From a virus (taxonomy: Duplodnaviria; Heunggongvirae; Uroviricota; Caudoviricetes): DNA of 47,939 nt. How positions within the stretch are numbered: the first letter of the stretch is position 1; each line of letters opens with the position of its first letter. Shown one piece after another: positions 1 to 22,035 of the stretch. The translations under genes were made by a program, and so were the position numbers. The stretch lies in IMG/VR virus record IMGVR_UViG_2802429228_000006, one strand, 5' to 3'. The notes under the pieces are model-generated. The model ran no database searches and was not told the origin of the DNA. It worked only from the letters and a program-made list of their open reading frames with translations.

Positions 1-1092
<1,092 letters not shown>

Positions 1093-4598: not shown

Positions 4599-4612
4599 GG
4601 TGTTGTTCTCCT

Positions 4613-4933
4613 TCAGTGCAGTACCGGCGCTTTTATGTGACGGGCACAGAGTTCATCCATCACAACCAGCCCGAGAAAGGACAGCGACGGCGCGGCCTTC
4701 AGGGGGCCGGATTCCATTAAATCTTCCAGCAGGGCACAGGCTATCTGACGCCCTTTTTCCTCACCGTGCTGGCGCAGATAAAAGCCTTCCAGCTCAGCGG
4801 CGATGGCCGCCTCCAGTGATTCAAGGGTGAGATGCGGGTAGCGGTGCTGACGTTCGCACACGGTCAGCCAGGCACAGGCGACAGCGCGACGGTAAAGGGC
4901 AGCGCGTAAGACGGGCGGTAAGGGTGTTTTCAT
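4613..4933 (-). CDS. Hypothetical P4-family early-operon protein (106 aa)
   Basis: ORF with a GGGAGG RBS, co-oriented and tightly packed upstream of alpha. Confidence 0.55.
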
Positions 4934-5068
4934 TTGCTTTCCTCCCTGTGACAGATGACAGCATTCCGTGCCGGTTGCATTAACTGATAAGGCATATCTG
5001 CGTCTCCTGAAGACGTGCGTATCCCTGCGCGAATACGCACATTTAATTTTTCGGGGGTCGTTTTTTAA

Positions 5069-5524
5069 TTACAGATAATTGCGGTAACTGTTATCCGGGG
5101 TGGTTTCCGGGTCAGGCTCCGTGCGGGGGATTTCCCGCCATTCCCGCGCCACCGGTGCCGCCCGGCTGACCGGAACAGGGGCCTGCGGGTAAATATCCAG
5201 ATATTTCTCCCGCCATTTCTGTAATTCCGGGTCTCCGGCCATTTCTTTCAGTACCGCATGCCGGTTTACGGGGCTGCGTTTAAACAGGTCAGGACGGTCA
5301 CAGGTAAATTCCCGCAGAAAACGCCCCAGCGGGATGTCTGTGGTGCGCCCGTCTGCGAGGATACGCACAAGGATACTGAATTTACGGCGGTACGGGTTCC
5401 AGACAATGTCCGGGCAGCGGTACGGCATTTCCCACGGAATACCGTCTTCCAGAATGCCGACCACGGCCACATCGGGAAAACCGGCAGAACGGTAAATCTC
5501 ACCGGGCTGGGGAAAATCAAACAT
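5069..5524 (-). CDS. P4 orf151-like protein (151 aa)
   Basis: Exactly 151 codons in the position P4 orf151 occupies upstream of alpha; GGGGAG RBS. Confidence 0.55.
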   Translation of the reverse strand: MFDFPQPGEIYRSAGFPDVAVVGILEDGIPWEMPYRCPDIVWNPYRRKFSILVRILADGRTTDIPLGRFLREFTCDRPDLFKRSPVNRHAVLKEMAGDPELQKWREKYLDIYPQAPVPVSRAAPVAREWREIPRTEPDPETTPDNSYRNYL

Positions 5525-5804
5525 GCGTCTTGTCTCCCCGGTCTTTCTGCTGGGCGAGAAAATCGCGGCACAGGCCTTTGGCTTTCAGCTCATTCAGCAC
5601 AAAATCAATATCTTCATTCAGGTAGCTGAAAATATGCGGAATGTAGAGCTGATGCAGGCCGGAGAGTTCACGGTGAATCAAATCACCCCCAACAAACTGG
5701 GATACGGCGCTGGCGCGGTTGAGCTTATGGTAAGCCTCAATGCTGAGGTGTTCACGGGCGTCATGACGCGCTGAGACGGTCTGAGGGGCTTTTTTATTAC
5801 GCAC
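5517..5804 (-). CDS. Putative derepression (epsilon-like) protein, about 95 aa, GTG start
   Basis: The C-terminal part of ORF-track entry 5517..6050 has coding character. GGAGG followed by GTG defines a short gene; the long upstream extension is implausible. Confidence 0.4.
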
Positions 5805-5994
5805 GGGACACCTCCACCACCGGCAGACGGGCAGCAAGGGAGAGCACATAGTCACGGACAAGGGAACGGCGGGCGCTGCGTTCATCACCGGCGACGGTGC
5901 GAAGCATGCAGATACGGGGATGACGGTCTGCGCGACGGACAGCCGCAAACACAAAGACAAATTCAGGGTGTGAGGGGGTAAGGGTTGTAGCCAT
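5797..5994 (-). CDS. Small early ORF (65 aa), possible Icd/Kil-like host cell-division inhibitor
   Basis: Internal ATG of ORF 5797..6396 preceded by AAGGAGG; begins [16 protein letters not shown]. Sits immediately downstream of the seqC-like element. Confidence 0.4.
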
Positions 5995-6002
5995 GATGGC
6001 AG

Positions 6003-6255
6003 CCTCCTTGAAGTAACAGTTACAGCTACCACTGGAGTTCCTACGCTCATGGGTGGTAGCCCGGACGGGGGTAGGAATACCGGCCTTCAAGGAAACCGGC
6101 CAGCCCGAAGGCTGCCCCGCCCGGACCACCATTATCTGACAGAGGCTACGGTTTAAAAACCACAGCCAGAAAAACAGGTGTGCCGAAGCAACGACGTAAA
6201 AAAAGACGCATGGCGCGTCATATGTCGCCTTGAAGTAACTCGGGTTCCTACGCCC
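6003..6255 (-). promoter_or_regulatory. P4-type RNA immunity region: two similar sequences flanking a central complementary element (candidate CI-like RNA around 6070..6095)
   Basis: CCTTGAAGTAAC...GTTCCTACGC occurs at about 6005-6045 and 6228-6255. The central stretch ggtaggaataccggccttcaagg contains the reverse complements of both half-motifs (GTAGGAA, CTTCAAGG). Confidence 0.4.
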
Positions 6256-6347
6256 GGCTGCCGATTTTGCGACAGCGGAAAAACTATATCCGCAAATGCC
6301 GGAAAAAGGCAAGCCAGAAAAAGGGACTTTTTGCAGAACAGGCATCA

Positions 6348-6614
6348 TCATGCGTCGTACCCCCGTTTGCGTCCGGCAATGCGCCCGGCCATCCATGCGG
6401 TGACTTCAGAGTGCAGCCAGGCCACATTTTTACCGCCAAGACTCACCTGTGGCGGAAATTCCCCCTTACGGATGAGTTCATAGATGGTCGAGCGTGACAG
6501 GCCGCACAGGTGCATCACTTCCGGCAGACGTAAAAAACGCTCCTGCGTGATGTCCGGCAGCGGCATCAGTGGCGTCACAGGGGCGGGAGACGGGGAAGAA
6601 AAAACAGCTTGCAT
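6348..6614 (-). CDS. AlpA-family phage transcriptional regulator (short HTH protein)
   Basis: RLPEV...[17 protein letters not shown]...W...SEV..W matches the AlpA-type HTH signature. The true start may be an internal Met. Confidence 0.65.
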
Positions 6615-6892
6615 CGGGCTACCTCGTTAATGTCCATACAGCACCGGATAAGTCCGTCCGGCGTCGGGTAGCGCTTTATTTTGTGAATATTTTCAGCAGA
6701 CGCAACAGGGGGGATTTGTTCCGGTAGCCTTACAATGGCTGTGTGTTTTTTATCCATCTGGACTGGAAGGGTCTCAAAGGGTTCTGAAGGACCTGGAATT
6801 TTTTATAGTGAAATACAAATTGTTTTTTCTTATTTATTTCAGTGAATTAATAAAAATAAAAAGTAATAAACAGCACAAAAAGTCCATGAGCG

Positions 6893-6997
6893 GGTGAACA
6901 GTGGTGAACAGACGGTGAACAGTCATCGCTGCGATTGTTCACCCTTTAACTTACTGTATTGCTTATCTTTTTTCTTATGGTGAACAGAGGTGAACAG
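6893..6997. repeat. ori-like iteron cluster: five direct GGTGAACAG copies plus one inverted copy
   Basis: gggtgaacagtggtgaacagacggtgaacag...attgttcaccc...ggtgaacagaggtgaacag. Same octamer as the crr cluster and about 4.9 kb from it, as for P4 ori versus crr. Confidence 0.6.
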
Positions 6998-7076
6998 TAA
7001 AATATAAAAAAAACAAACAGTAAGCCGGTTTTTCCTGCGACCTTTTCCTGGCTTGCCGGTCTGAGGATGAGTCTCC

Positions 7077-7094
7077 TGTGTCAGGGCTGGCACA
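7077..7094 (+). promoter_or_regulatory. Delta/Ogr-type activator site (TGT-N12-ACA) of a P_sid-like late promoter
   Basis: tgtgtcagggctggcaca lies about 75-90 bp upstream of the sid ATG. Confidence 0.5.
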
Positions 7095-7166
7095 TCTGCA
7101 ATGCGTCGTGTTGTTGTCCGGTGTACGTCACAATTTTCTTAACCTGAAGTGACGAGGAGCCGGAAA

Positions 7167-7901
7167 ATGTCTGACAACACCATCCCTGAATATCTGCAAC
7201 CCGCGCTGGCACAACTGGAAAAGGCCAGAGCCGCCCATCTTGAGAACGCCCGCCTGATGGATGAGACCGTCACGGCCATTGAACGGGCAGAGCAGGAAAA
7301 AAATGCGCTGGCGCAGGCCGACGGAAACGACGCTGACGACTGGCGCACGGCCTTTCGTGCAGCCGGTGGTGTCCTGAGCGACGAGCTGAAACAGCGCCAC
7401 ATTGAGCGCGTGGCACGCCGGGAGCTGGTACAGGAATATGACAATCTGGCCGTGGTGCTGAATTTTGAACGTGAACGCCTGAAAGGGGCGTGTGACAGCA
7501 CGGCCACCGCCTACCGGAAGGCACATCATCACCTTCTGAGTCTGTATGCAGAGAATGAGCTGGAACACGCCCTGAATGAAACCTGTGAGGCGCTTGTCCG
7601 GGCAATGCATCTGAGCATCCTGGTACAGGAAAATCCGCTCGCCAACACCACCGGCCATCAGGGCTACGTCGCACCCGATAAAGCTGTCATGCAGCAGGTG
7701 AAATCATCGCTGGAACAGAAAATAAAACAGATGCAAATCAGCCTCACCGGCGAGCCGGTTCTCCGGCTGACCGGACTGTCAGCGGCAACACTCCCGCACA
7801 TGGATTATGAGGTGGCAGGCACACCGGCACAGCGCAAGGTGTGGCAGGACAAAATAGACCAGCAGGGAGCAGAGCTTAAGGCCAGAGGACTGCTGTCATG
7901 A
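7167..7901 (+). CDS. sid: Sid, P4 capsid size-determination (external scaffold) protein
   Basis: 244-aa product from MSDNTIPEYL with a GAGGAG RBS. First gene of a sid-delta-psu operon with P4 sizes. Confidence 0.8.
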   Translation: MSDNTIPEYLQPALAQLEKARAAHLENARLMDETVTAIERAEQEKNALAQADGNDADDWRTAFRAAGGVLSDELKQRHIERVARRELVQEYDNLAVVLNFERERLKGACDSTATAYRKAHHHLLSLYAENELEHALNETCEALVRAMHLSILVQENPLANTTGHQGYVAPDKAVMQQVKSSLEQKIKQMQISLTGEPVLRLTGLSAATLPHMDYEVAGTPAQRKVWQDKIDQQGAELKARGLLS

Positions 7902-8398
7902 TTTACTGCCCGTCGTGTGGACATGTTGCTCACACCCGTCGCGCACATTTCATGGACGATGGCACCAAGATAATGATTGCACAGTGCCGGAATATTTATT
8001 GCTCTGCGACATTTGAAGCGAGTGAAAGCTTTTTCTCTGACTGTAAAGATTCAGGAATGGAATACATTTCAGGCAAACAGAGATACCGCGATTCACTGAC
8101 GTCAGCCTCCGGCAGCATGAAACGCCCGAAAAGAATGCTTGTTACCGGATATTGTTGTCGGAGATGTAAAGGCCTTGCACTGTCAAGAACATCGCGGCGT
8201 CTGTCTCAGGAAGTCACCGAGCGTTTTTATGTGTGCACGGATCCGGGCTGTGGTCTGGTGTTTAAAACGCTTCAGACCATCAACCGCTTCATTGTCCGCC
8301 CGGTCACGCCGGACGAACTGGCAGAAAGCCTGCATGAAAAACAGGAACTGCCGCCAGTACGCTTAAAAACACAATCATATTCGCTGCGTCTGGAATGA
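7898..8398 (+). CDS. delta: Delta, late-gene transcriptional activator (tandem Ogr-like zinc fingers)
   Basis: 166 aa with two CxxC...C..C Ogr-type modules (MIYCPSCGHVAHTRRAH... and ...CCRRCKGLALSRTS...CTDPGCGLVF); start overlaps the sid stop. Confidence 0.85.
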   Translation: MIYCPSCGHVAHTRRAHFMDDGTKIMIAQCRNIYCSATFEASESFFSDCKDSGMEYISGKQRYRDSLTSASGSMKRPKRMLVTGYCCRRCKGLALSRTSRRLSQEVTERFYVCTDPGCGLVFKTLQTINRFIVRPVTPDELAESLHEKQELPPVRLKTQSYSLRLE

Positions 8399-8471
8399 GG
8401 GCTGCCGGTTAATACCGGCCGTCGCCGCACACCGTATTTTTATTCTTCAGCATGATGAGAAAGAGATAACG

Positions 8472-9044
8472 ATGGAAAGCACAGCCTTACAGCAGGCCTT
8501 TGACACCTGTCAGAATAACAAAGCAGCATGGCTGCAACGCAAAAATGAGCTGGCTGCGGCCGAACAGGAATATCTGCGGCTTCTGTCCGGGGAAGGCAGA
8601 AACGTCAGTCGCCTGGACGAATTACGCAATATTATCGAAGTCAGAAAATGGCAGGTGAATCAGGCCGCCGGTCGTTATATTCGTTCGCATGAAGCCGTTC
8701 AGCACATCAGCATCCGCGACCGGCTGAATGATTTTATGCAGCAGCACGGCACAGCACTGGCGGCGGCACTGGCACCGGAGCTGATGGGCTACAGTGAGCT
8801 GACGGCCATTGCCCGAAACTGTGCCATACAGCGTGCCACAGATGCCCTGCGTGAAGCCCTTCTGTCCTGGCTTGCGAAGGGGGAAAAAATTAATTATTCC
8901 GCACAGGATAGCGACATTTTAACGGCCATCGGATTCAGGCCTGACGCGGCTTCGGTGGATGACAGCCGTGAAAAATTCACTCCTGCGCAGAACATGATTT
9001 TTTCGCGTAAAAGTGCGCAACTGGCATCACATCAGTCTGTGTAA
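8472..9044 (+). CDS. psu: Psu, polarity suppression protein (Rho antagonist / capsid decoration)
   Basis: 190 aa; the MESTALQQAFDTCQNNKAAWLQRKNELAAAEQEYLRL N-terminus is recognisable as P4 Psu. Confidence 0.9.
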   Translation: MESTALQQAFDTCQNNKAAWLQRKNELAAAEQEYLRLLSGEGRNVSRLDELRNIIEVRKWQVNQAAGRYIRSHEAVQHISIRDRLNDFMQQHGTALAAALAPELMGYSELTAIARNCAIQRATDALREALLSWLAKGEKINYSAQDSDILTAIGFRPDAASVDDSREKFTPAQNMIFSRKSAQLASHQSV

Positions 9045-9080
9045 AACTCCCCGAAAATCCGCCCGTTTTTACTGAAAAAA

Positions 9081-9119
9081 GCCATGCATCGATAAGGTGC
9101 ATGGCTTTGCATGCGTTTT
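9081..9119 (+). terminator. Hairpin plus T-rich tract downstream of psu
   Basis: gccatgcatcgataaggtgcatggc followed by tttgcatgcgtttt. Confidence 0.45.
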
Positions 9120-9208
9120 CCTGCCTCATTTTCTGCAAACCACGCCATTCCCGGCGCGGTCTGAGCGTGTCAGTGCAACTGCATTAAAACCGCCCCGCAA
9201 AGCGGGCG

Positions 9209-9227
9209 GGCGAGGCGGGGAAAGCAC
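9209..9227. other. cos site, P2/P4 type (19-nt cohesive-end sequence)
   Basis: ggcgaggcggggaaagcac matches the P2/P4 cohesive end as I recall it, in the P4 position just past psu. Confidence 0.7.
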
Positions 9228-9315
9228 TGCGCGCGCATTGAATTAATTTATTAATAATTAAACTAGAATATGGAGTGGAGAAGTAAGAAACTTATAACAC
9301 TAAGGATAAGAGGAT

Positions 9316-11403
9316 ATGGGCAAAATGCAAAAAACTGAGGTCGAAGTATTTTCTGAGTTGGAGTCACTGTGTACATCTCATGGTTTTATTCATTGTTTAG
9401 CATTATTAAGCTGCATAAATAATATTACTATCTATGAAGACAAACTTAATTTTAAAGATGTGCAACATCTATACGAAAAAGAACGATTGATAAGAACCGA
9501 GATTTCTACGGTTGCAGGATTGTTGTTAAAGTCTGAAATTAATGTAAATTATCCCGGCGAAGAAGCACTGTTGAAATTATACGAAGATGTGAATGCATCT
9601 TTGAATATTTTACATAGTGCTATGCTTTTGACTGAGAAGAATGGCGATTACAACAATGCGATTATAAAAGAGAGTATATTTTATGCTGCTGAATCTGCTT
9701 ATGACTTTCAATATTTAGATATGGCGGAGGAAAAATACTCCTTAGATAATTCTTGGTTTTTAGAGAATATGGGGTTTACATGCATCGATATGGTGTCAGT
9801 AGGCCGGTGTATAGAGTCTATAATAGGGAGGCAAATTAATGATTTTTTAAATGGTGGTCAAGGGATTTTTAATGAGTGGCTATTAAATGCTTACGAGTTG
9901 TCAATTAATGAAATAGTTACTGAGACAGGTATTTCTTATGTGAAGGTAAGAACTATCATTGATTTGTTTTCGTCAGGTGGAAATTCAAATGAAACCTTTC
10001 AGTCTGTGAGTGACTTTAATATCTTTAATGCTAGACCCATAATCCGCACTGGAGATAGGTATTATTGTTTTTCAGCCTATTCATTGGCTCAGTCAATATA
10101 TGAAACACCATTTTTTTGGATGAATAATGACAAAAAATATAGACCTATATCTGCACAACATAGAGGACAATTTGTAGAAGATTATGTATATAGAAAAATG
10201 ACATCGATTTTTGGAATTGAGAATGTATTCAAAAATGTATATATAGTGAACTCTAATAATGAGACGCTAGGTGAAATAGATGTACTGGTATCTTTTTCTG
10301 ATTCGGTAATAATTTATCAGGCAAAATCTAAGAAGTTAACTATTGAAGCTAGAAAGGGAAATGGGAATGCTATACAAAAAGATTTTCAAGGTGCTATACA
10401 AGATGCTTATGATCAGGGGGTTTCTTGTGCTCAATTCATCGTATCTGGCGCAAGCCTAACTGATCAAAATTTCAACCGATTGAATCTCAACTCTTCAGTC
10501 TCTAGATGTTATATTGTTCCAATTATATCTGAGCATTATCCGTCTTTGAGTTTTCAGGTTCGTCAGTATTTGAATGTTAAAATAACAAATGAAATTTACC
10601 CGCCATTTATAATGGATGTTTTCCTTTTAGATGTTCTAACAGAGTTTTTAAATACGCCGCTATATTTTTTATCTTACATTGATCGTCGTTCGAAATATAA
10701 CATGAGAGTATTTTCTTCTCATGAATTGACAGTCTTTTCTTTGCATCTAAAACAGAATCTATGGATTGACAATGAATGTGATATGTTTATGTTGCATGAT
10801 GATATATGTGCTGATCTCGATATTGCGATGTTAGTCCGCAGGAAGGGGATCTCTGGTAAACATACTCCAAGTGGTATTCTAACACTCCATCAGGATGGCT
10901 TTATTAGAAAAATAATTAACTCATTGGAATCGGAAAATCATAAATTGGCGATGGATTTAGGTTTGCTTTTGCTTTCTTTGGATAGTGATGCTATTGAAAA
11001 CATCAATAAAATAGCTAATAAAACGATATTTTTATCTTCACTTGATAAGAAACACCATGATTTTTCAACTGTCATTGGGGATACGGGTATTACAGTTCAT
11101 TGTAATTACTATAAGAAAGATGTCGCGGGAAAAAAGTTGTATGAACATTGCATAAAAAGAAAATATATAACTAAATGTAAAAAATGGATTGGTATACATG
11201 TTAGACCAATAACATATGATATAAATTATGGAATTATGTTGGATTTTGAATGGGAATATTCTTCTGATATTGAAAGTATTATCACTCCTACTCCATTACA
11301 AAATACTTTGGTTAATGTTAAGGGAAATATGACTCAAGCAAAACGACCGGGTAGAAATGAACCATGTTTTTGTGGTAGCGGTAAAAAATGTTGTTTACGT
11401 TAA
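9316..11403 (+). CDS. Cargo protein (695 aa): putative PD-(D/E)xK/NERD-like nuclease with C-terminal SEC-C-type Cys motif; candidate anti-phage factor
   Basis: AT-rich ORF between cos and int. GEIDVLVSFSDSVIIYQAKSK fits a D..E.K nuclease core; the C-terminus CFCGSGKKCC fits a SEC-C metal-binding motif; no P-loop seen. Confidence 0.75.
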   Translation: MGKMQKTEVEVFSELESLCTSHGFIHCLALLSCINNITIYEDKLNFKDVQHLYEKERLIRTEISTVAGLLLKSEINVNYPGEEALLKLYEDVNASLNILHSAMLLTEKNGDYNNAIIKESIFYAAESAYDFQYLDMAEEKYSLDNSWFLENMGFTCIDMVSVGRCIESIIGRQINDFLNGGQGIFNEWLLNAYELSINEIVTETGISYVKVRTIIDLFSSGGNSNETFQSVSDFNIFNARPIIRTGDRYYCFSAYSLAQSIYETPFFWMNNDKKYRPISAQHRGQFVEDYVYRKMTSIFGIENVFKNVYIVNSNNETLGEIDVLVSFSDSVIIYQAKSKKLTIEARKGNGNAIQKDFQGAIQDAYDQGVSCAQFIVSGASLTDQNFNRLNLNSSVSRCYIVPIISEHYPSLSFQVRQYLNVKITNEIYPPFIMDVFLLDVLTEFLNTPLYFLSYIDRRSKYNMRVFSSHELTVFSLHLKQNLWIDNECDMFMLHDDICADLDIAMLVRRKGISGKHTPSGILTLHQDGFIRKIINSLESENHKLAMDLGLLLLSLDSDAIENINKIANKTIFLSSLDKKHHDFSTVIGDTGITVHCNYYKKDVAGKKLYEHCIKRKYITKCKKWIGIHVRPITYDINYGIMLDFEWEYSSDIESIITPTPLQNTLVNVKGNMTQAKRPGRNEPCFCGSGKKCCLR

Positions 11404-11410
11404 GGACAAT

Positions 11411-11429
11411 GGCGCGTTAAAAACGCGCC
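11411..11429. terminator. Bidirectional terminator between the cargo gene and int
   Basis: Perfect palindrome ggcgcgttaaaaacgcgcc flanked by T-runs. Confidence 0.5.
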
Positions 11430-11430
11430 T

Positions 11431-12624
11431 TTAGTTATTTTTTTTTACTTTGTTTCCCCACCATTCCATGAGTTCAATTCGTTGCTCTAAGTATGTAGAT
11501 CTATTGTATGCTCTCCGAACTTCATTTTTATCACTGTGAGCTAAAGCCGCTTCAATAACATCTGCATTGAAACCAGCTTCATTCATTGCAGTGCTTGCAA
11601 TAGAGCGAAGGCCATGAGCAACTAGTTTTCCGCCAAAACCAATGCGTTTTAAAGCTGCATTAGCAGTTTGGCTATTCATTGGCTGTTTAGGGTCATTTCT
11701 ACTTGGAAAAATATGTTCACGATGGGCACTAATAGGCTTCATTACTTCCAAAATATCTAAAGCCTGACGTGATAAAGGAACAATGTGTTCACGTTTGGCT
11801 TTCATCCGTTCAGGGGGAATAGTCCAGAGTTTTGTATCAAGATCGATCTCTGCCCAACAAGCACCAGAGGCTTCAGAAGGGCGTACAAGCGTCAAGAGTT
11901 GCCATTCAATGAGACAGCGAGTCGGAACAGATAGGTTTGACATAGCTAAAGAACGCATCAGCTTCGGCAATTCTTCTGGCCGCAATGTTGGCATGTTTTG
12001 CTTTTTTGGCTTCTCAAAGGCCATCCCAACCCCAGATGCTGGATTGGCATCAATCAGACCAGTGTTTACAGCGTAAATCATTATCTCGTTAATTCGCTGT
12101 ATCAGTCGACGTACAGTTTCAAGAGCCCCACGAGCTTTGATTGGCTCAAGAGCTTCGACTAGCGTCCGGGCTTTGATTTGCTGGACGGGAATCTCTCCAA
12201 TGGCTGGGAATATGTCTTTTTCCAGCGAACGCCATATATCTTTAGCGTAATCAGGGGAAACGCTTTTGCTTTTTATCTGAAACCAGTTGGTCGCAACAGT
12301 CGAAAAAATACTGTCTAGAGCTATCTGTTGTTGTTCTTCGATAAATTCAGCTTGAACTTGTGGGTCTATACCATTAGCCAACAAAGCAAGGTAATCCGCT
12401 CTTAACCGTCGAGCATCAGCAAGTGAAAGAGCGGGGAAAGCACCTATCCCCATCATTGTTCTTTTTTTTGTAGCTGGTCGTTGATAGCGAAATCGCCAAA
12501 GTTTCTTACCGCTTGTTTTCACTATCAGAAAGAGGCCTTCGCCATCATGCAACGTCAGATCCTTTTCTAATGCTTTAGCGCGCAGAACTTCTGTATTGGT
12601 TAGGGGGCGTGTTGTTCTTGCCAC
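11431..12624 (-). CDS. int: P4-type tyrosine integrase (IntA-like)
   Basis: 397-aa product with a P4/CP4-57 integrase-like sequence and a C-terminal catalytic region (HGLR..., ...AHSD...RAY). Adjacent to the att repeat. Confidence 0.9.
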   Translation of the reverse strand: MARTTRPLTNTEVLRAKALEKDLTLHDGEGLFLIVKTSGKKLWRFRYQRPATKKRTMMGIGAFPALSLADARRLRADYLALLANGIDPQVQAEFIEEQQQIALDSIFSTVATNWFQIKSKSVSPDYAKDIWRSLEKDIFPAIGEIPVQQIKARTLVEALEPIKARGALETVRRLIQRINEIMIYAVNTGLIDANPASGVGMAFEKPKKQNMPTLRPEELPKLMRSLAMSNLSVPTRCLIEWQLLTLVRPSEASGACWAEIDLDTKLWTIPPERMKAKREHIVPLSRQALDILEVMKPISAHREHIFPSRNDPKQPMNSQTANAALKRIGFGGKLVAHGLRSIASTAMNEAGFNADVIEAALAHSDKNEVRRAYNRSTYLEQRIELMEWWGNKVKKNN

Positions 12625-12645
12625 TTTGGCCGCTCCTTCATGAAT

Positions 12646-12697
12646 TGGTATACGCGTTTAGGCATATATCCTATCGTATACCTAAACGTATACCAAT
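12646..12697. promoter_or_regulatory. GTATACC box cluster between int and att (candidate integrase arm sites)
   Basis: ttggtatacg...cgtatacctaaacgtataccaat includes a 10-bp inverted repeat (ttggtatacg / cgtataccaa). The same box pair recurs at 1826..1848 at the other end of the element. Confidence 0.35.
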
Positions 12698-12737
12698 AAT
12701 CACTGGATTTAGCTGGATATCCTCGGACAACAGTAGA

Positions 12738-12773
12738 CACAAAAAAGCCCGCAGAGCTTGTGTCATGCGGGCT
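12738..12773 (-). terminator. Rho-independent terminator (minus strand) downstream of the ssrA-end copy
   Basis: Stem agcccgca/tgcgggct with a T6 run on the minus strand. Confidence 0.45.
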
Positions 12774-12808
12774 TTCAGGATTTCTCCGGACGTATCCGGA
12801 AGAGCAAG

Positions 12809-12853
12809 TGGTGGAGCTGGCGGGAGTTGAACCCGCGTCCGAAATTCCTACAT
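12809..12853 (-). repeat. 45-bp direct repeat of the ssrA 3' end (att core copy)
   Basis: tggtggagctggcgggagttgaacccgcgtccgaaattcctacat is identical to 46879..46923, the 3' end of intact ssrA, then diverges. Confidence 0.85.
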
Positions 12854-12969
12854 ACCATTATAACATGTTGCAAAACAACTATTTATGTTAATTTTCAATC
12901 ACTTAAGTTTACGATGTATTACCTTGTTTTATGTGTTTTTAACTCTTTGCCGCCATTATGCCGCCACTC

Positions 12970-14193
12970 TTATTTTAAATATTCATACTTCATCATTTGA
13001 TGAATAAGGAGTTCAACTTTTCTAAAAGTGGTATTTTCATAATGTTCAACAAGGGATTCATCAAAGTCTTCAATCCATCCTTTTGCGGGATTATAGGTCG
13101 AAAAATTAAAATTATTTTTGTATAGATAGGGGGTGGCTTCTAGTGTACTAAACACAGTCCAGGAAACAGGGTTTGTAACTCTAAATATTTTTTTTAAAAC
13201 AGGACAGTGGGTATCATTGGTTTCAACTATGTTTTCTATTTTTGGGGGGATAATTACATTAATCCCAATATCGCTATCTTTTTGGTTTAATATCTTTGTT
13301 GATCGATACGATATCCCTGATATATTTTTGTTTCTGTCACTACTAATCCATTGCATTAATAGGTTTGGTATTATGTATTCTTTATTAAAACTTGCGTTTT
13401 CATTATCTTTTGTATAGTTACATGCAAGGACTAAAGGCCATGCAATCAACTTTGAAATTTTATCATTAATTTGATCCATGAAATTATCATTATTTAGATC
13501 GTAATCATCATCTGAACCTTGTTCGAATGAATACCAAAGATCTCCCGGTTTTGTACGAAGTGCAGATGTTAAATTGTACCCAAGATCTAAAATTCTTATA
13601 TTTGAATTTTCTTTATCGGATATGAAGGAAGATATGTAAAGTTTATCAAAGTCAGGTTTTCCCATTTCTTGCCAACATACAAATATTGATGTTCCAAGAT
13701 ATAAACATGGAAGACCGGATACAGAAAATCTTTGTGCGCTAACTAAATGTCTATTTTTAAATGGTATATGAAATAATTCTTCTCTTTGTTTTAGGATGCA
13801 CTCACTTTTCCTTACGCGAAATAAAGGGGTGTGTGGGTTGCATAATTTAGTTAGAGGAACAGTCATCTTATAAAGATGAGTATGCATTGATGACTTGGTA
13901 ATTGCCAAATCGAATTTTTTATAAGCTTCTTTAACATTTCCTATTAAAAATAGCTTAAGAGTTTCTATTATTTTATCAGATAAATATATTATTGATTTTG
14001 TGCGAATCTTTACTTGTTTAATTATCTCGTTGTCAGGATATTTATTTCTAATGGAGTCAATTAATTCTAAATAGCACTCGACTCTCTTAGAAAAGTCAGA
14101 AATTAGTTTTCCCTCGGCAATGAATGGGGGTTGCAATAGTTCATGTTTTTTTAGTTCTTCCGATATCTGTTCTAATTCGATAATGTTGCGCAT
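12970..14193 (-). CDS. RES-domain protein (407 aa), candidate NAD-targeting toxin / abortive-infection effector
   Basis: AT-rich ORF between att and int. LFRVR...QRFSVSGLPCLYLGTSIFVCWQE matches the RES signature (R...GRWN..G.P.LY......E). No adjacent partner gene. Confidence 0.6.
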   Translation of the reverse strand: MRNIIELEQISEELKKHELLQPPFIAEGKLISDFSKRVECYLELIDSIRNKYPDNEIIKQVKIRTKSIIYLSDKIIETLKLFLIGNVKEAYKKFDLAITKSSMHTHLYKMTVPLTKLCNPHTPLFRVRKSECILKQREELFHIPFKNRHLVSAQRFSVSGLPCLYLGTSIFVCWQEMGKPDFDKLYISSFISDKENSNIRILDLGYNLTSALRTKPGDLWYSFEQGSDDDYDLNNDNFMDQINDKISKLIAWPLVLACNYTKDNENASFNKEYIIPNLLMQWISSDRNKNISGISYRSTKILNQKDSDIGINVIIPPKIENIVETNDTHCPVLKKIFRVTNPVSWTVFSTLEATPYLYKNNFNFSTYNPAKGWIEDFDESLVEHYENTTFRKVELLIHQMMKYEYLK

Positions 14194-14197
14194 GTGC

Positions 14198-15217
14198 TTA
14201 ATCCATCAAGGTTGCTAATGGGTTTTTAGTTACTGCATCTTCAAGATGATCTGGGGAAAAATGAGCGTAAATCATCGTCATTTTTATATCGGCATGTCCA
14301 AGAATATCGCGCAGTACCAGTATATTTCCACCGTTCATCATAAAATGACTGGCAAATGTATGGCGCAGAACATGGGTACATTGGCCTTCTGGTAGTTCTA
14401 AACCGGCTCGCTTTACTGCACGCTCAAAGGCTTTTCTGCATGGGGTGAATAACTTCCCCCTATTCTTAGGCAGTTCTTCATATAAATCCTTAGAAATAGG
14501 CACAGTTCGGTTTTTCTTGCCTTTGGTCTTGGTATAAGTGATACGGTATTTTGATACCTGATGACTCTGCAGGTTTTCGGCTTCGCTCCAGCGTGCGCCG
14601 GTGGCCAGGCATATTTTTGCAATCAAAAGCAGGCTGGAGCTTTGAGAATCGGCGCAGGCATCCAGCAGACGTTTAATTTCTTCCGGGGTCAGGAACGCCA
14701 ATTCACTCTCAGCAATTTTAAATGTTGGCAGCCCAGCAAGCGGGTTGGGGGCTGACCAGTGGCCCAGCTTTTTCAGTGTACCAAAAACAGATGATAGATT
14801 GCGCTGTTCAAGGTTTACCGTGCGGGGCTTAACGGGCGACATAAACGTGCCATCTTCATTTCGTACTTCACCTTTTAACCGTGCTTCGCGGTATTTCGTA
14901 AAGTCACCGGCTGTCAGTTCTGAAGCGATGGGATCGCCTAGACCATTACAGATAATTCTAAGTTTCGCTATGAGGCGCTTGGGGTCTGCGAGTGTTTGAC
15001 CATACAGGGAATACCACTGCTCAATTAATTCTGATAGGTGTCGCCGATCTTCCTTTTCCCCCAGCCATGGTTTTTTGTTCACTTCTTCCATTGTGAAGCT
15101 TTCAAAAGCAATGGCTTCGCCTTTCGTAGCAAATTGCTTACGCACGCGCTTGCCATTGCGTCCATTGGGATAGCACTCGCACAACCATTTACCGTTTGGC
15201 TGTTTTCTGACAGTCAT
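14198..15217 (-). CDS. int: P2/186-family tyrosine integrase
   Basis: 339 aa with a C-terminal catalytic region (ARWSEA..., HVLRHTFAS, ...MTMIYAH); position next to the repressor. Confidence 0.9.
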   Translation of the reverse strand: MTVRKQPNGKWLCECYPNGRNGKRVRKQFATKGEAIAFESFTMEEVNKKPWLGEKEDRRHLSELIEQWYSLYGQTLADPKRLIAKLRIICNGLGDPIASELTAGDFTKYREARLKGEVRNEDGTFMSPVKPRTVNLEQRNLSSVFGTLKKLGHWSAPNPLAGLPTFKIAESELAFLTPEEIKRLLDACADSQSSSLLLIAKICLATGARWSEAENLQSHQVSKYRITYTKTKGKKNRTVPISKDLYEELPKNRGKLFTPCRKAFERAVKRAGLELPEGQCTHVLRHTFASHFMMNGGNILVLRDILGHADIKMTMIYAHFSPDHLEDAVTKNPLATLMD

Positions 15218-15219
15218 GT

Positions 15220-15852
15220 TTAGATACTCTTTATTACTTTGACTGCACGCCCAATAACTTCCACATCATCGGCAGAGCACTCGAAAGACGCTTCATCTTG
15301 ATTTACTACAATCTTATTGCCGGGAATCCGCATGATTTTTGCAATAATAATCATTCCATCAATATTGATAAGCCAGAATCCATTGCTGACTTGTTTAACT
15401 GATTTATCGATGAGATAACAATCAGTAGGGGTTTCTAAGAACATCGATTCTTCATAATCTGCAGGTAATATGCTGTGGTCTAGGAAAATCTCTTCATCAA
15501 TACTGAGTTGTCCATTTTCCAAGGTTCCTTTAGGAATAGATGGAGTTATGAGTTTGGATAACGGTTTAATTGCTTGTTTGTTCTCGTTATGAGATCTTTT
15601 CTCAGACTCGTATCCTTCTTTCATGCTTCCCTGTCCAGTGGCTAACCAAAGTAACGAAACACCGGTTTCTAGTGCACACTGAATTATCCAGTCAGCAGGA
15701 AAACTGTCACGTAACACTCTGTTTGCCATAGTACTTTTTGAGACATTCAGGTGCTCGCTTAATGCCTGCTTAGTTGTGAATCCATAAGCCTCAAGCAGCC
15801 TCTCAATAGCTGCCTTACCTCCCGTATCGGAACCCATTCTGATGTTTAACAT
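15220..15852 (-). CDS. cI: 186-type CI immunity repressor
   Basis: 210 aa with an N-terminal HTH; divergent from an Apl-like gene across an operator-bearing intergenic region; GGAG RBS. Confidence 0.7.
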   Translation of the reverse strand: MLNIRMGSDTGGKAAIERLLEAYGFTTKQALSEHLNVSKSTMANRVLRDSFPADWIIQCALETGVSLLWLATGQGSMKEGYESEKRSHNENKQAIKPLSKLITPSIPKGTLENGQLSIDEEIFLDHSILPADYEESMFLETPTDCYLIDKSVKQVSNGFWLINIDGMIIIAKIMRIPGNKIVVNQDEASFECSADDVEVIGRAVKVIKSI

Positions 15853-15871
15853 TGGTAATCTCCATTTGACA

Positions 15872-15886
15872 ATCTTGAATCAAGAT
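15872..15886. promoter_or_regulatory. Candidate operator palindrome in the cI/apl switch region
   Basis: atcttgaatcaagat (7-1-7 perfect palindrome) between the divergent cI and apl. Confidence 0.35.
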
Positions 15887-15973
15887 CGTAATGTCTTCGT
15901 GTCTCTTGATGTGAGAGTTAAAGAGACGAGCTAAAACGAACTAACACGCACACAAAGTAAGAGATACTGCACT

Positions 15974-16216
15974 ATGAGTACTGATATTTCAATTCGTGTA
16001 CCAAAAGAGATGGCTACGCCTGCAGAGTTCGCAGAGTGGGAGGGCATTTCCCGTGGCTCTGTTTACCAAAAAATTCACCATGGTCAACTTGCTAAGTACA
16101 TGGTCAAGAAAGAAAAAAATAAAGGCCGCGTAAGCCTTCGTTATCTGATGTACAAAACTGATCAGGTCCGTGAATCCCTCGGTCATTCCAACTTCCGCGT
16201 CATTGTTGGTAAGTAA
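15974..16216 (+). CDS. apl: Apl/Cox-like excisionase / transcriptional regulator
   Basis: 80 aa with an HTH (EFAEWEGISRGSVYQKIHHGQL); first gene of the rightward lytic operon. Confidence 0.6.
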   Translation: MSTDISIRVPKEMATPAEFAEWEGISRGSVYQKIHHGQLAKYMVKKEKNKGRVSLRYLMYKTDQVRESLGHSNFRVIVGK

Positions 16217-16248
16217 GTTCAATTATGGGAACTTTCTAAGGGGGCACC

Positions 16249-16758
16249 ATGTTTGATTACAAGATTTCCAAACATCCGCATTTCGATGAAGCCTGTAGGG
16301 CTTTTGCACTGCGTCACAACTTGGTGCAACTGGCAGAACGTGCAGGCATGAATGTGCAGATTCTGCGGAACAAGCTGAACCCAGCTCAGCCTCATTTATT
16401 AACCGCACCAGAAATCTGGCTGCTTACCGATCTGACTGAAGATTCAACGCTGGTAGATGGTTTTCTGGCACAGATTCATTGTCTGCCATGTGTACCGATT
16501 AATGAGGTGGCAAAAGAGAAACTGCCGCATTACGTCATGAGCGCAACTGCAGAGATCGGGCGTGTTGCAGCAGGTGCGGTATCTGGTGATGTAAAAACTA
16601 GTGCCGGTCGTCGTGATGCTATCAGCAGCATTAACTCTGTAACACGACTGATGGCGCTGGCGGCTGTTTCATTGCAGGCCCGTTTACAGGCTAATCCTGC
16701 GATGGTGAGTGCAGTTGATACCGTGACTGGCCTCGGTGCTTCATTCGGTTTGCTGTGA
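16249..16758 (+). CDS. cII: CII-like lysogeny establishment regulator (186 type)
   Basis: 169 aa, the size of 186 CII, in the matching position after apl. Confidence 0.65.
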
Positions 16759-16765
16759 GGTGCTT

Positions 16766-17062
16766 ATGCTGACGAAAGAACCATCATTTGCATCGCTGCT
16801 GGTAAAACAAAGCCCGGCAATGCACTACGGTCACGGCTGGATCATGGGTGAGGATGGTAAACGCTGGCATCCATGTCATTCACAAGATGAATTGCTGTCT
16901 GAATTGACCACGAGGAAACGGAGAAAGTCAAAATGTATGCAGCGGAAAGTGAAGTGGTTTATCAGTTTCGTTACAGAGGGGAGAGTTATTCAGTACCTGA
17001 AGATGATTTGCTCTGTTGTTATCCGTCGTTGTCGGGCGATGGCAGTTACTTTTTCACGCTAA
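16766..17062 (+). CDS. Hypothetical early protein (frame and extent uncertain)
   Basis: ATG with GAGGTG RBS; the C-terminal third overlaps the next ORF in another frame, so one of the two may be shorter or spurious. Confidence 0.3.
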   Translation: MLTKEPSFASLLVKQSPAMHYGHGWIMGEDGKRWHPCHSQDELLSELTTRKRRKSKCMQRKVKWFISFVTEGRVIQYLKMICSVVIRRCRAMAVTFSR

Positions 17063-17157
17063 GGGATGGGACGTTTTTACGGGGAGAGCAGGTTAAAGAG
17101 ACGATACGAAAAAATGTATCTCCTCTTGAACGTTACCGTAAGAACAAAGAACGATAG
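16933..17157 (+). CDS. Hypothetical early protein (74 aa)
   Basis: ORF with a GGAG upstream at suboptimal spacing and plausible coding character. Confidence 0.35.
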   Translation: MYAAESEVVYQFRYRGESYSVPEDDLLCCYPSLSGDGSYFFTLRDGTFLRGEQVKETIRKNVSPLERYRKNKER

Positions 17158-17179
17158 TTGCGTTTTGGGGATATGAATT

Positions 17180-17521
17180 ATGGCAATTAATGGCGCTGCG
17201 GCGACTGTTCCATTAAGCCCCGGTGAACGCCTGAATGGACTTAATCACATTGCGGAGTTAAGGGCGAAAGTATTTGGCCTGAATATTGAGTCAGAGCTTG
17301 AGCGGTTTATTAAAGATATGCGTGATCCACGGGATATCAATAACGAACAAAATAAACGAGCACTGGCTGCCATATTCTTTATGGCAAAAATTCCAGCTGA
17401 ACGTCATAGCATCAGCATTAATGAGCTGACCACTGACGAAAAGCGGGAGTTGATTAAAGCAATGAATCATTTTCGTGCAGTGGTGAGCTTATTTCCCAGA
17501 CGGCTAACCATGCCGAATTAA
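17180..17521 (+). CDS. Hypothetical early protein (113 aa)
   Basis: ORF in the early operon; no recognisable motif. Confidence 0.5.
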   Translation: MAINGAAATVPLSPGERLNGLNHIAELRAKVFGLNIESELERFIKDMRDPRDINNEQNKRALAAIFFMAKIPAERHSISINELTTDEKRELIKAMNHFRAVVSLFPRRLTMPN

Positions 17522-17588
17522 GCAACTAATGAAATTAATGGCGTAAACCCGCCGGGCATCCCTTTATCTAAATTCAGGAGAATTGATT

Positions 17589-17822
17589 ATGCGTAATATT
17601 GAAACCCTCACGACTAAAACCGGACCGGATGATGCAGGGCTTAATATTTTACTGACAGAGGCTCGTCTGGAAGAACGCCGGGCAAGGGCTGAAGCAATGG
17701 CAGCTCGCCTTGATAGCCTGGCGTGTCATATCACATCCCGCCAGCTAAACCACGTCGAAGCGGCAGAACTGCTGCGTGTGACTGCTGAAGCAATCCAGAA
17801 CGAAGCGCAGGAGATCCACTAA
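17589..17822 (+). CDS. Hypothetical early protein (77 aa)
   Basis: ATG at 17589 with a CAGGAG RBS; the track entry begins 6 nt earlier at TTG. Confidence 0.45.
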   Translation: MRNIETLTTKTGPDDAGLNILLTEARLEERRARAEAMAARLDSLACHITSRQLNHVEAAELLRVTAEAIQNEAQEIH

Positions 17823-18049
17823 TGGCAGATGCAATGGATCTCGTACAGCAGCGCGTTGAAGAAGAACGCCAGCGCTATATCCGTGCTGCCCGTGCCAAAA
17901 CACCGGGCGTGTCTCGTGTGCTTTGTATTGAATGTGAAGCGCCAATTCCGCCAGCACGACGCCGCGCCATTCCTGGAGTGCAGCTTTGCATTACCTGTCA
18001 GGAAATCGCAGAGCTGAAAGGCAAACATTACAACGGAGGTGTTGTATGA
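17822..18049 (+). CDS. TraR/DksA-family C4 zinc-finger protein
   Basis: CIECEAPIP...CITCQ four-Cys motif in a 75-aa protein, typical of phage TraR-like proteins. Confidence 0.7.
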   Translation: MADAMDLVQQRVEEERQRYIRAARAKTPGVSRVLCIECEAPIPPARRRAIPGVQLCITCQEIAELKGKHYNGGVV

Positions 18050-18903
18050 GCACCATCCTGAAATGGGCGGGAAATAAAACCGCCATTATGTCCGAACTGA
18101 AAAAACATCTTCCTGCTGGCTCGCGACTGGTTGAACCTTTCGCGGGTTCCTGTGCTGTGATGATGGAGACGGATTACCCCAGCTATCTTGTTGCGGATAT
18201 TAATCCTGATTTAATCAACCTCTATAAAAAGGTTGCTGCTGATTGCGAGGCGTTTATATCTCGTGCCAGAGCTTTATTTGAGGAAGCAAACAGGGATGTG
18301 GCTTATTACAACATAAGGCAGGAGTTTAATTACTCCATTGAAATTACTGATTTCATGAAAGCGGTATATTTCCTGTATCTCAATCGTCATGGTTACCGTG
18401 GGTTATGTCGCTATAACAAGAGCGGGCATTTCAACATTCCGTACGGTAATTATAAAAATCCGTATTTCCCTGAAAAAGAAATTCGCGCATTTGCAGAGAA
18501 AGCCCAGCGGGCAACGTTTATATGCGCCAGCTTTGATGAAACGCTGGCGATGTTGAAGGCGGGGGATGTGGTGTATTGCGATCCGCCTTATGACGGTACG
18601 TTTTCCGACTATCACACTGACGGCTTCACTGAAGATGACCAGTATCACCTGGCATCCCTTCTTGAACATCGGTCATCAGAAGGACATCCGGTCATTGTTT
18701 CTAACAGTGACACATCCCTGATCCGTTCGCTGTATCGCAATTTTACTCACCACTACATCAAGGCAAAACGCAGCATCGGCGTAGCAGCTGGTGAGAGTAA
18801 ATCTGCAACAGAAATCATCGCTGTTTCCGGGACACGCTGCTGGGTGGGATTTGATTATTCGCGTGGCGTGGATAGTTCAGCCGTGTACGGAGTACGTGCA
18901 TGA
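18046..18903 (+). CDS. dam: DNA adenine methyltransferase (Dam-like, N6-MTase)
   Basis: KWAGNK...FAGS motif I and DPPY motif IV; ATG at 18046 with a GGAGG RBS. The track start at 17986 is an upstream extension overlapping the previous gene. Confidence 0.85.
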
Positions 18904-21314
18904 GTCATGCCGATATGAACAACTGCTGCGGCTTTAACGAGGCTGCCGCAGCGTTCTCATGGAACAGCCCGAAAAAGGCCATTAACCCTTATCTGGACCC
19001 GGCGGAAGTCGCGCCGGTTTCTGCGCTTTCAAACCTGATCACTCTGTACGCTGCCGATAACGAGCAGGAACAGCTGCGCCGCGAGGCACTGAGTGATCAG
19101 GCCTGGGAGCGTTATTTCTTTAATGAATCCCGTGATCCTGTCCAACGCGAAATGGAGCAGGATAAGCTCATTAGCCGGGCAAAGCTGGCGCATGAGCAGC
19201 AGCGTTTTAATCCAGACATGGTCATTCTGGCGGACGTTAACGCCCAGCCTTCCCATATCAGCAAGCCGCTGATGCAACGTATTGAATACTTCAGCAGCCT
19301 GGGCAGGCCAAAGGCTTATTCCCGCTATTTGCGTGAGACGATTAAGCCATGTCTGGAACGACTGGAGCATGTACGCGACTGTCAGCTATCCACTTCTTTT
19401 CGCTTTATGGCAAGCCATGAAGGGCTGGACGGCCTGCTGATCCTGCCTGAAATGAGTCAGGATCAGGTGAAGCGCCTGTCTACCCTTGTCGCCGCGCATA
19501 TGAGCATGTGCCTTGATGCAGCTTGTGGTGATTTGTATGCCACCGATGACATTAAGCCAGAAGAAATCCGCAAAACATGGGAAAAGGTGGCAGCGGAAAC
19601 CCTGCGTCTGGATGTTATCCCGCCTGCGTTTGAGCAACTCCGTCGGAAAAGAAACCGCCGTAAACCCGTGCCTTATGAACTCATTCCGGGTTCGCTGGCG
19701 CGTATGTTATGCGCCGACTGGTGGTATCGGAAATTATGGAAGATGCGTTGCGAATGGCGGGAAGAGCAGTTGCGTGCTGTTTGCCTGGTCAGCAAAAAAG
19801 CATCTCCCTATGTCAGCTATGAAGCCGTGATGCATAAACGTGAGCAGCGCCGTAAGTCGCTGGAGTTTTTCCGTTCTCATGAACTGGTGAACGAAGACGG
19901 CGACACGCTGGATATGGAAGACGTGGTAAACGCCAGCAGCAGCAACCCTGCGCATCGCCGCAATGAGATGATGGCCTGTGTTAAAGGTCTGGAGCTTATC
20001 GCGGAAATGCGCGGTGACTGCGCCGTTTTCTACACCATCACCTGTCCGTCACGTTTCCATTCCACGCTAAATAACGGCAGGCCCAACCCGACCTGGACAA
20101 ATGCGACGGTAAGACAAAGCAGTGATTATCTGGTCGGTATGTTTGCTGCATTTCGTAAGGCGATGCACAAAGCCGGATTACGCTGGTATGGCGTGCGGGT
20201 GGCTGAGCCGCATCATGACGGTACAGTTCACTGGCACCTGTTGTGTTTTATGCGCAAAAAAGATCGCCGCGCCATTACTGCTTTGTTGCGTAAGTTTGCC
20301 ATTCGTGAAGACCGCGAGGAGCTGGGTAATAACACGGAACCACGCTTTAAGTCTGAGCTGATAAACCCGCGCAAAGGTACGCCAACAAGCTACATCGCGA
20401 AATACATCAGTAAGAACATTGACGGGCGTGGTCTGGCTGGCGAGATCAGCAAGGAAACGGGTAAATCCCTGCGTGATAACGCTGAATACGTTAATGCCTG
20501 GGCGTCTCTGCATCGTGTTCAGCAATTCCGCTTCTTTGGCATTCCGGGGCGTCAGGCTTACCGTGAACTGCGATTGCTGGCTGGTCAGGCGGCAAGGCAA
20601 CAGGGGGACAAAAAAGCAGGTGCGCCGGTACTGGATAACCCGCGCCTTGATGCCATCCTAGCCGCTGCTGATGCTGGTTGTTTTGCCACCTACATCATGA
20701 AGCAGGGCGGCGTACTGGTTCCCCGCAAATATCACCTCATCAGAACCGCTTATGAAATCAACGAAGAGCCGACCGCCTATGGCGATCACGGTATTCGTAT
20801 TTATGGCATCTGGTCACCCATTGCAGAGGGCAAGATCTGCACTCATGCGGTGAAGTGGAAAATGGTTCGTAAGGCCGTTGACATTCAGGAGGCGGCAGCC
20901 GACCAGGGCGCTTGCGCCCCTTGGACTCGTGGCAATAACTGTCCCCTTGCTGAAAATTTGAACCAACAGGAGAAAGATAAATCAGCTGATGGGGACCCCA
21001 GAACGGACATTACCAGCATGGATGACAAGGAGTTGCACGATTACCTGCACAGTATGAGCAAAAAAGAGCGCCGGGAACTGGCAGCAAGGTTACGCCTGGT
21101 GAAACCGAAACGGCGTAAAGACTACAAACAGCGAATTACAGACCATCAGCGACTGCAGCTCGTGTATGAGCTGAAGTCCAGAGGATTTGATGGCAGCGAG
21201 AAAGAGGTCGATTTACTCCTTCGCGGAGGCAGTATTCCGTCAGGAGCAGGCCTGCGTATCTTCTATCGGAACCAGCGTTTGCAGGAAGATGATCAGTGGC
21301 GGAACCTGTATTAA
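18900..21314 (+). CDS. A: Replication initiation endonuclease (P2 gene A family, rolling-circle initiator)
   Basis: 804-aa product of the size and position of P2/186 gene A, following the early operon. Confidence 0.85.
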
Positions 21315-21408
21315 TTACGCGGGTTAACAATTCGTGCTCTTAATAATACCAGGCATATCAGGCTGATGAACGTAAAAAATCGTTTTACATCAGTAAGATT
21401 ATTATATA

Positions 21409-21424
21409 CTGTAAATATAAACAG
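21409..21424. promoter_or_regulatory. LexA (SOS) box, CTGT-N8-ACAG
   Basis: tactgtaaatataaacagtg lies about 45 bp upstream of the 21468 ATG. Confidence 0.6.
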
Positions 21425-21467
21425 TGGTTATGCATACAGCATTGCGTGTGGTGTCATAGGAGGAAAG

Positions 21468-21656
21468 ATGCAGGACTATTTTTTGGAGTCTTTGAAGCTC
21501 CAGCGCATTGATTTTTTTCTTAAGCTTGTAGCGGCTAGTGAGTGTAGTGATGAAGAGAAGGGGCTGGCTCTGCAGTGGGTTTCTGAATTGACTGATGAAC
21601 TCATGGCAAAAATCAGAACCCACGAATACAACCGCTCAATGGATGTCATCAGCTGA
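21468..21656 (+). CDS. Small SOS-controlled protein (62 aa), possible Tum-like antirepressor
   Basis: AGGAGG RBS and ATG directly downstream of the LexA box; function inferred from context only. Confidence 0.45.
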   Translation: MQDYFLESLKLQRIDFFLKLVAASECSDEEKGLALQWVSELTDELMAKIRTHEYNRSMDVIS

Positions 21657-21666
21657 GGTGACTTTT

Positions 21667-21900: not shown

Positions 21901-22035
21901 GAAACGTTGCTGGCGTCTGAACTTGCTTCTGGCGTCAGCAAGGTTGAACAACGAGCCCTTGCGAGGCGTTAGCTCTGTAGTGCATGTCTATGCCGCATGA
22001 GATCGCATGATCGTTTGAGGATCGTTTTTGCTAAG

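Follow-up and report, generated by a model that had tools for sequence, protein, structure and literature searches.

A P4-like satellite and a P2-like prophage in probable tandem array at ssrA in Escherichia

The tmRNA gene (ssrA) is a hotspot for many integrase families, and is used by prophages, P4-like satellites and other elements (PMC10121019, PMC3603311). Here, we describe a 47,939-nucleotide stretch of viral DNA (IMG/VR record IMGVR_UViG_2802429228_000006; all of it is called the window below) in which a second copy of the ssrA 3' end lies between two integrase genes. The locus raises the questions of how this internal copy came about, which of the two neighboring elements was integrated first, and whether either of them can leave without the other. 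The best overall explanation is very likely that two independent integrative elements, a P4-like satellite and a P2-like prophage, stand in tandem at ssrA in an Escherichia chromosome (Table 1).

Table 1. Features of the window, in order of position
Feature	Positions	Strand	Evidence
Native flank that directly follows ssrA in empty sites (ATCATGATTAGACGG...)	1599-1754	minus	alignment to empty-site loci
Native (pre-insertion) ssrA terminator	1604-1627	minus	scan; T-run to about 1596
P4-like satellite	about 1755-12853		own integrase, own terminator
Eroded ssrA-end remnant, satellite distal att, psaA-like	1755-1772	minus	alignment to K-12 psaA
Satellite body	1773-12808		Pfam, Rfam, gene table of L063
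Alpha primase-helicase (satellite)	2265-4598	minus	Pfam / L063 gene table
C4/isrK-type RNAs, immunity region (satellite)	6049-6276	minus	Rfam
AlpA (satellite)	6348-6614	minus	Pfam / L063 gene table
Ogr/Delta (satellite)	7898-8398	plus	Pfam / L063 gene table
Psu (satellite)	8472-9044	plus	Pfam / L063 gene table
695-aa cargo gene (satellite)	9316-11403	plus	L063 gene table
Satellite tyrosine integrase, P4/CP4-57 IntA type	11431-12624	minus	Pfam Arm-DNA-bind_3, Phage_int_M, Phage_integrase
Satellite-borne intrinsic terminator GAAAGCCCGCAUGACACAAGCUCUGCGGGCUUUUUU	12739-12775	minus	consensus scan; fold
Displaced 45-bp ssrA 3' end	12809-12853	minus	prophage att copy adjoining integrase
P2-like prophage, Peduoviridae, Fels-2/Elveevirus type, 34,025 bp	12854-46878		integrase, attP, genome comparisons
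407-aa cargo gene, between att copy and prophage integrase	12970-14193	minus	ORF
Prophage tyrosine integrase, P2 type	14198-15217	minus	Pfam Int_N, Phage_integrase
CI (prophage)	15220-15852	minus	
80-aa ORF in Cox/Apl position	15974-16216		
gpA (prophage)	18900-21314	plus	
PD-T7-1 homologue (prophage cargo)	22222-23631	plus	E = 1e-196
AIPR/AbiU-like protein (prophage cargo)	32497-34197	minus	
160-aa gene (prophage cargo)	46273-46755	minus	weak PDC-S48 match
Phage-supplied terminator now serving functional ssrA (predicted)	46843-46870	minus	scan; fold
Functional ssrA 3' end, 45 bp, phage-supplied	46879-46923	minus	exact 45-mer copy
ssrA, intact tmRNA gene	46879-47241	minus	ARAGORN; Rfam RF00023, 295 bits, full length

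The two ssrA ends, their terminators and the empty site

The sole tmRNA gene in the window (tag peptide ANDENYALAA by ARAGORN), with smpB after it at 47457-47939, is full-length and stands at one end of the array, as Islander expects of an intact target tDNA. A 45-bp ssrA-end copy at 12809..12853 had been proposed by a sequence-only reading of the window, and it is indeed an exact duplicate of the present gene end: the window holds exactly two copies of the 45-mer (TGGTGGAGCTGGCGGGAGTTGAACCCGCGTCCGAAATTCCTACAT), with 0 mismatches, and none of 100 dinucleotide-preserving shuffles contained a match. Since the bases adjoining the block differ on both sides of both copies, the identity block is exactly 45 bp. 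Across 5426 complete E. coli genomes, the 45-mer is found at 5695 places, at most four per genome. The same reading had put an integrase on each side of the internal copy, which Pfam bears out with one of P4 type and one of P2 type, both with the Phage_integrase catalytic domain, so that each island has its own tyrosine integrase. A 407-aa cargo gene separates the internal copy from the prophage integrase.

A separate minus-strand terminator stands behind each ssrA-end copy. The one proposed by the sequence-only reading on the satellite side of the internal copy was recovered by a consensus scan (hairpin 12745-12775, T-run 12739-12744), and the 71-nt segment downstream of the internal 45-mer has a folding energy of -27.6 kcal/mol (z = -4.4; equalled by 0 of 200 shuffles). 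Its presence is thus upheld, but it is satellite-borne and is not the native ssrA terminator, which lies at the far end of the insert (-14.6 kcal/mol, z = -4.4), inside the segment 1-1761 present in empty-site conspecifics, and has its homologue in the K-12 terminator that lies between psaA and ypjA. The satellite terminator directly follows intact ssrA in E. coli A20 and GD33 and in two loci with the satellite alone (L062, L066), is absent from the empty-site genomes, and is predicted to end the ssrA transcript wherever the satellite adjoins the intact gene. The third terminator, at the present gene end, folds at -19.4 kcal/mol (z = -5.9), and in the attP of free phage Cartapus, as in Fels-2, a terminator of this type adjoins the 45-mer directly.

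An unoccupied site that matches the joined flanks is found in four genomes with an identical GlaH (L022, L023 (CP025979.1), L025 and L027), in which smpB, ssrA and glaH are only about 1.35 kb apart, in the order smpB-ssrA|ATCATGATT...-glaH. There, ssrA ends in ...GCCAGCTCCACCA (CCA) and is followed directly by the native flank. Window 1-1761 is 99.1-99.5% identical to these loci, and 1-1761 and 46878-47939 together align at 99.1-99.8% and abut in them, so that about 45 kb (~1755-46878) is inserted DNA. The native flank also follows the displaced 45-mer in E. coli genomes carrying only the prophage, such as S88. Identity of the window flanks to E. coli is just about 92-93%, and CP025979.1 is a genome that we take to be Escherichia marmotae; the host is an Escherichia, probably E. 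marmotae.

The prophage integrase shares 92.9% identity with its counterparts in phages Cartapus (Peduoviridae, Elveevirus) and RE2010. A P2-like phage that integrates into ssrA should carry, when free, an ssrA 3' block joined to both prophage ends, and this is what Cartapus has: ogr, a 160-aa gene, a terminator (AAGGGGTTACG...CGTAGCCCCTTTTT), the 45-mer, ACCATT, a cargo gene, int and cI are contiguous inside its record, and this stretch matches the attP rebuilt from the window (46878 + 45-mer + 12854). At the corresponding place, Fels-2 carries an attP annotated as 47 bp. By these attP sequences, the functional ssrA 3' end and the terminator next to it are phage DNA, and the internal copy is therefore the displaced end. 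That the internal copy was once a functional gene end, as the sequence-only reading suspected, is directly supported by L066, which joins ...12853 straight to 46924... without a prophage, and by the same arrangement in E. coli A20 and GD33.

The satellite holds the P4 core set in P4 order (alpha, Psu, Delta/Ogr, AlpA, an epsilon-type derepression protein and integrase), and its integrase shares 61% identity with K-12 IntA across 394 aa. A 244-aa ORF (7167-7901) in the sid position upstream of delta had no Pfam match. Just downstream of the alpha gene, a 121-nt direct repeat is present in two copies (1910-2030 and 2090-2210; 81% identical, 180 bp apart); these repeats hold reiterated TGTTCACC/GGTGAACA motifs, and thus may be P4-type replication sites (ori/crr). 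The sequence CGTATACCTAA(TT/AC)GTATACCAAT is found near both satellite ends (1826-1848 and 12675-12697), with more GTATACC copies at 12644-12655, and its repeats are candidate arm-type integrase binding sites. Cargo genes occupy variable slots in both elements, and the 695-aa and 407-aa ones adjoin the two integrases. Neither of these two proteins has a Pfam or PADLOC match, and both are candidates for unknown defence genes.

Partners in other genomes and the order of arrival

Both elements occur elsewhere with other partners. The prophage segment 12809-22193 (9.4 kb) is 99.7-99.98% identical in other genomes, with homology ending exactly at 12809 or 12806. It lies beside the native ATCATGATT flank in S88-type loci (L006, L009 and L012, 99.70%; L007, 99.98%), beside a different island with a P4-type integrase in L008 (99.97%), and beside a P4-like satellite in the complete 5.0-Mb chromosome L011 (OZ039544.1), where identity is 98.2% over 11456-22193, spanning the junction. 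The satellite is found with 0 mismatches alone beside ssrA in L062 (9538 bp); alone in L066, where 3649 bp of satellite and 1061 bp of ssrA-smpB flank are both 100% identical and no prophage is present; with another P2-like phage, whose integrase is 86% identical, in L065; and behind a lambdoid prophage in L064 and L067. In these last two loci the junction is at window position 12835, and the ssrA block of the lambdoid phage is just 27 bp, which indicates a different sublocation in ssrA; its integrase has 390 aa and an Arm-DNA-bind_2 domain. A draft contig that is possibly the source of the window itself (L063) carries satellite and prophage together (3316-17403, 14,088 bp at 100%), the satellite of E. 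coli A20 is 97-98.7% identical to that of the window, and 10 of the 5426 complete E. coli genomes contain the full junction of satellite terminator, 45-mer and P2-type arm. The comparison with single-element strains that the sequence-only reading had proposed as a check therefore yields both satellite-only and prophage-only genomes, and its main claim, two sequential integrations into ssrA, is supported by two elements in series, each with its own integrase and ssrA fragment, and by the empty site in conspecifics.

Reverse arrays (ssrA-satellite-P2-like prophage) were seen in L033 (IMGVR_UViG_2751185382_000006) and L051, with the satellite arm joined to the phage-type terminator AATAAATCAAGGGGTTACG. 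In loci from Enterobacter, Citrobacter, Kosakonia and Lelliottia (L013-L021), an ssrA end displaced by a Fels-2-type prophage is followed by AAATTCTCCATCGG...terminator, a sequence assigned to CP4-57 in the K-12 annotation. A search of these loci for the satellite integrase found a relative only in the Klebsiella locus L016 (45%), whose downstream sequence differs, and the AAATTCTCCATCGG downstream block may thus be native in those genera.

A constant satellite with varying proximal phages, together with the satellite-only L066, makes a history in which the satellite was resident first the most economical one, and the later arrival of the prophage in the intact ssrA is accordingly read from sequence comparison as probable. 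In a first step, the last ~23 nt of ssrA would have been the target of a P4-like satellite with a CP4-57 IntA-type integrase; a new gene end and the terminator at 12739-12775 would have come from the satellite attP, and the eroded fragment at 1755-1772 would have been left beside the old downstream flank. In a second step, a P2-like phage of Fels-2/Elveevirus type would have recombined with the last 45 nt of the intact gene, its attP providing the present gene end and the third terminator, and the previous end, with the satellite terminator attached, would have been pushed 34 kb away to its internal position.

In the opposite order, the prophage would have come first and the satellite would later have entered the displaced 45-bp fragment instead of the intact gene. 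The final map is the same for either order, since the satellite target, the full ~23 nt used by IntA-type integrases, is retained in the displaced 45-mer. Moreover, the reverse arrays indicate that satellites can arrive in genomes already bearing P2-like prophages at ssrA. However, the late satellite in both of those arrays adjoins the intact gene and is not distal to the prophage; an identical satellite found alone and behind three different prophages would require the displaced fragment to have been chosen repeatedly; and L066 has the satellite-only state with an identical chromosomal flank. We therefore regard this order as improbable. The reverse arrays, in which the satellite would be the later arrival and sits proximal to ssrA, fit a rule by which the newcomer sits next to the gene. 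The satellite-only L066 could instead be a prophage-cured derivative and not an ancestor.

That the whole 45-kb block is one composite element moving as a unit, with att sites at the intact ssrA end and at the eroded remnant, is very unlikely. It might be suggested by the Klebsiella 'phage' Kp4865-2 (INPHARED OK490418.1, 46,667 bp), a single entry of 46.7 kb with a P4-type integrase (59.5% identical), a Fels-2-type integrase (96.4% identical) and a piece of ssrA between them. However, satellite and prophage pair freely with other partners across genomes, and 45 kb exceeds the genome of about 33-34 kb of a P2-type capsid (Cartapus, Fels-2). The Klebsiella record is more simply a merge made in prophage prediction, probably a tandem of satellite and prophage called as one prophage. 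An assembly artefact, by collapse or mis-join across the 45-bp repeat, is hardly credible: the sole record 100% identical across the junction is a draft contig that may be the source of the window, but the junction recurs in the complete chromosome OZ039544.1 and its equivalents in the 10 complete E. coli genomes, and the repeat is shorter than any sequencing read.

The satellite attachment site and excision

The satellite is closed by an 18-nt ssrA-end remnant that the sequence-only reading did not contain, and which reads TTCAAACTCCGCCAGCCA where ssrA has TTCAACTCCCGCCAGCTCCACCA. In the K-12 annotation, CP4-57 spans from 15 bp inside ssrA to a 14-bp pseudo-ssrA, psaA, and the psaA region aligns with the reverse complement of 1599-1775 (K-12 TTCAGACTCCGCCAGCCCACCA|ATCATGATT, window TTCAAACTCCGCCAGCCA|ATCATGATT). 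By this alignment, the remnant is the distal att of the satellite, and the DNA right after the internal 45-mer (CTTGCTC... and the terminator) belongs to the satellite; this arrangement of 45-mer and satellite DNA forms the working ssrA 3' end in A20 and GD33 (100% over 12500-12853), and also in L062 and L066. The same remnant junction is present in L026, L028 and L029. Each island thus has a displaced tDNA fragment in direct orientation, the 45-mer for the prophage and the degenerate 18-nt remnant for the satellite. The last ~23 nt of the displaced 45-mer also contain the proximal att of the satellite, and the satellite boundaries are compatible with a crossover in the last ~14-23 nt of ssrA. 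A search of IMG/VR for a free satellite attP with the pattern TTATTCAAACTCCGCCAGC gave 32 matches, all of them integrated and none circular or packaged.

An exact 13-bp direct repeat (AAAAAAGCCCGCA; 1602-1614 and 12741-12753) could be taken to mean that the satellite was inserted not into ssrA but into its terminator, and homology to other satellite-bearing loci does start at 1599-1603. This is scarcely tenable: the empty sites already contain 1599-1761, with the alignment continuing to 1761, the satellite arm meets many different right-hand contexts at the same point, and K-12 psaA marks the same boundary. The 13-mer as satellite core is refuted by the psaA comparison and the empty-site alignment; it is no more than a stem and T-run that two terminators have in common. 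The lack of any full-length match in the 5426 E. coli genomes to a synthetic empty site with this wrong core carries no weight, since the host is not E. coli sensu stricto.

The satellite distal att varies among loci. The arm ...TTATTCAAACTCCGCCAGC abuts many different right-hand contexts in the 32 IMG/VR loci, and the variants between arm and native flank are TCCACCA, CCACCA, CCCA, CCA, CA, C or nothing; in the window, the conserved arm ...CTCCGCCAGC is followed by CA, and the distal att is short of about 5 nt of core. The remnant is always CCACCA when its neighbor is the terminator of another element, and erosion appears solely where the remnant adjoins the native flank. The deletions are patterned, in that they always begin at tmRNA T357 (1755-1772; L030-L061; L001, L002, L026, L028 and L029).

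Perfect 45-bp repeats, an intact integrase, the 80-aa ORF in the Cox/Apl position and a genome that equals the predicted excision product (L066) make independent excision of the prophage likely, and it probably excises alone, restoring the satellite-only state. Excision of the satellite is doubtful because its distal att is eroded, although its integrase and AlpA are intact, and in the window it would take place at the displaced fragment instead of at the working ssrA gene. Excision of CP4-57 removes T357 and inactivates tmRNA (PMC10107115). If the distal att of IntA-type satellites were systematically eroded from T357, excision of the satellite would ruin ssrA, and the satellite would be locked in by selection; a prophage between ssrA and satellite would then uncouple satellite excision from tmRNA inactivation, so that the satellite would be re-mobilized beside a potential helper and the CP4-57-style 'ribosome-rescue switch' abolished. 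Taken as a whole, this chain of systematic erosion, a locked-in satellite and re-mobilization by the prophage is speculative and rather unlikely to hold.

Comparison with known systems

For annotation, the 45-kb insert is to be read as two elements and not one, with exact att coordinates (Table 1), and the internal ssrA fragment with its terminator as the junction between them and not as a second gene or a regulatory RNA. The locus is also an example of an element attP that supplies both gene end and terminator. The co-occurrence at one hotspot of a P4-like satellite and a potential helper of P2 type, and the eroded distal att, are of modest interest for satellite-helper ecology and for the CP4-57 excision switch. 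Two papers on P4-like satellites (PMC8628076, PMC13586616) contain nothing specific on P4/P2 tandems at ssrA.

The Islander account (PMC4383910; Williams 2003 as cited there) documents tandem arrays with a separate fragment and integrase for every island, and counts 125 arrays of at least two islands among 3919 islands. As in those arrays, an intact tDNA forms one end, every island brings a displaced 3' fragment and a tyrosine integrase of its own, the orientation is the same throughout, and the attP of each island restores the gene. Nothing essential differs; the two members here are a satellite and a phage of helper type. The locus is a textbook tandem array, and its elements are nearly or fully identical to those of public genomes. 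The sole mildly unusual aspect is the patterned erosion of the satellite distal att, with its possible consequence when a prophage lies between satellite and gene.

CP4-57 of K-12 (IntA/AlpA) shares with the window satellite its target at the extreme ssrA 3' end, an element-borne terminator right after ssrA, and the same degenerate remnant before the same ATCATGATT flank. The window satellite differs in having a complete P4-like gene set (alpha, Psu, Delta, AlpA and others) and not that of CP4-57, in a remnant that has lost more bases (GCCAGCCA vs GCCAGCCCACCA), and in the prophage that separates it from the functional ssrA. The window prophage, in turn, is like Fels-2, Cartapus and RE2010 in its attP, made of a terminator and a 45-47-bp ssrA 3' end between the ogr and int sides, in its genome of about 34 kb, and in its variable cargo slots beside att, of which the slot between att and int holds the 407-aa protein in the window and a RES-domain protein in Cartapus.
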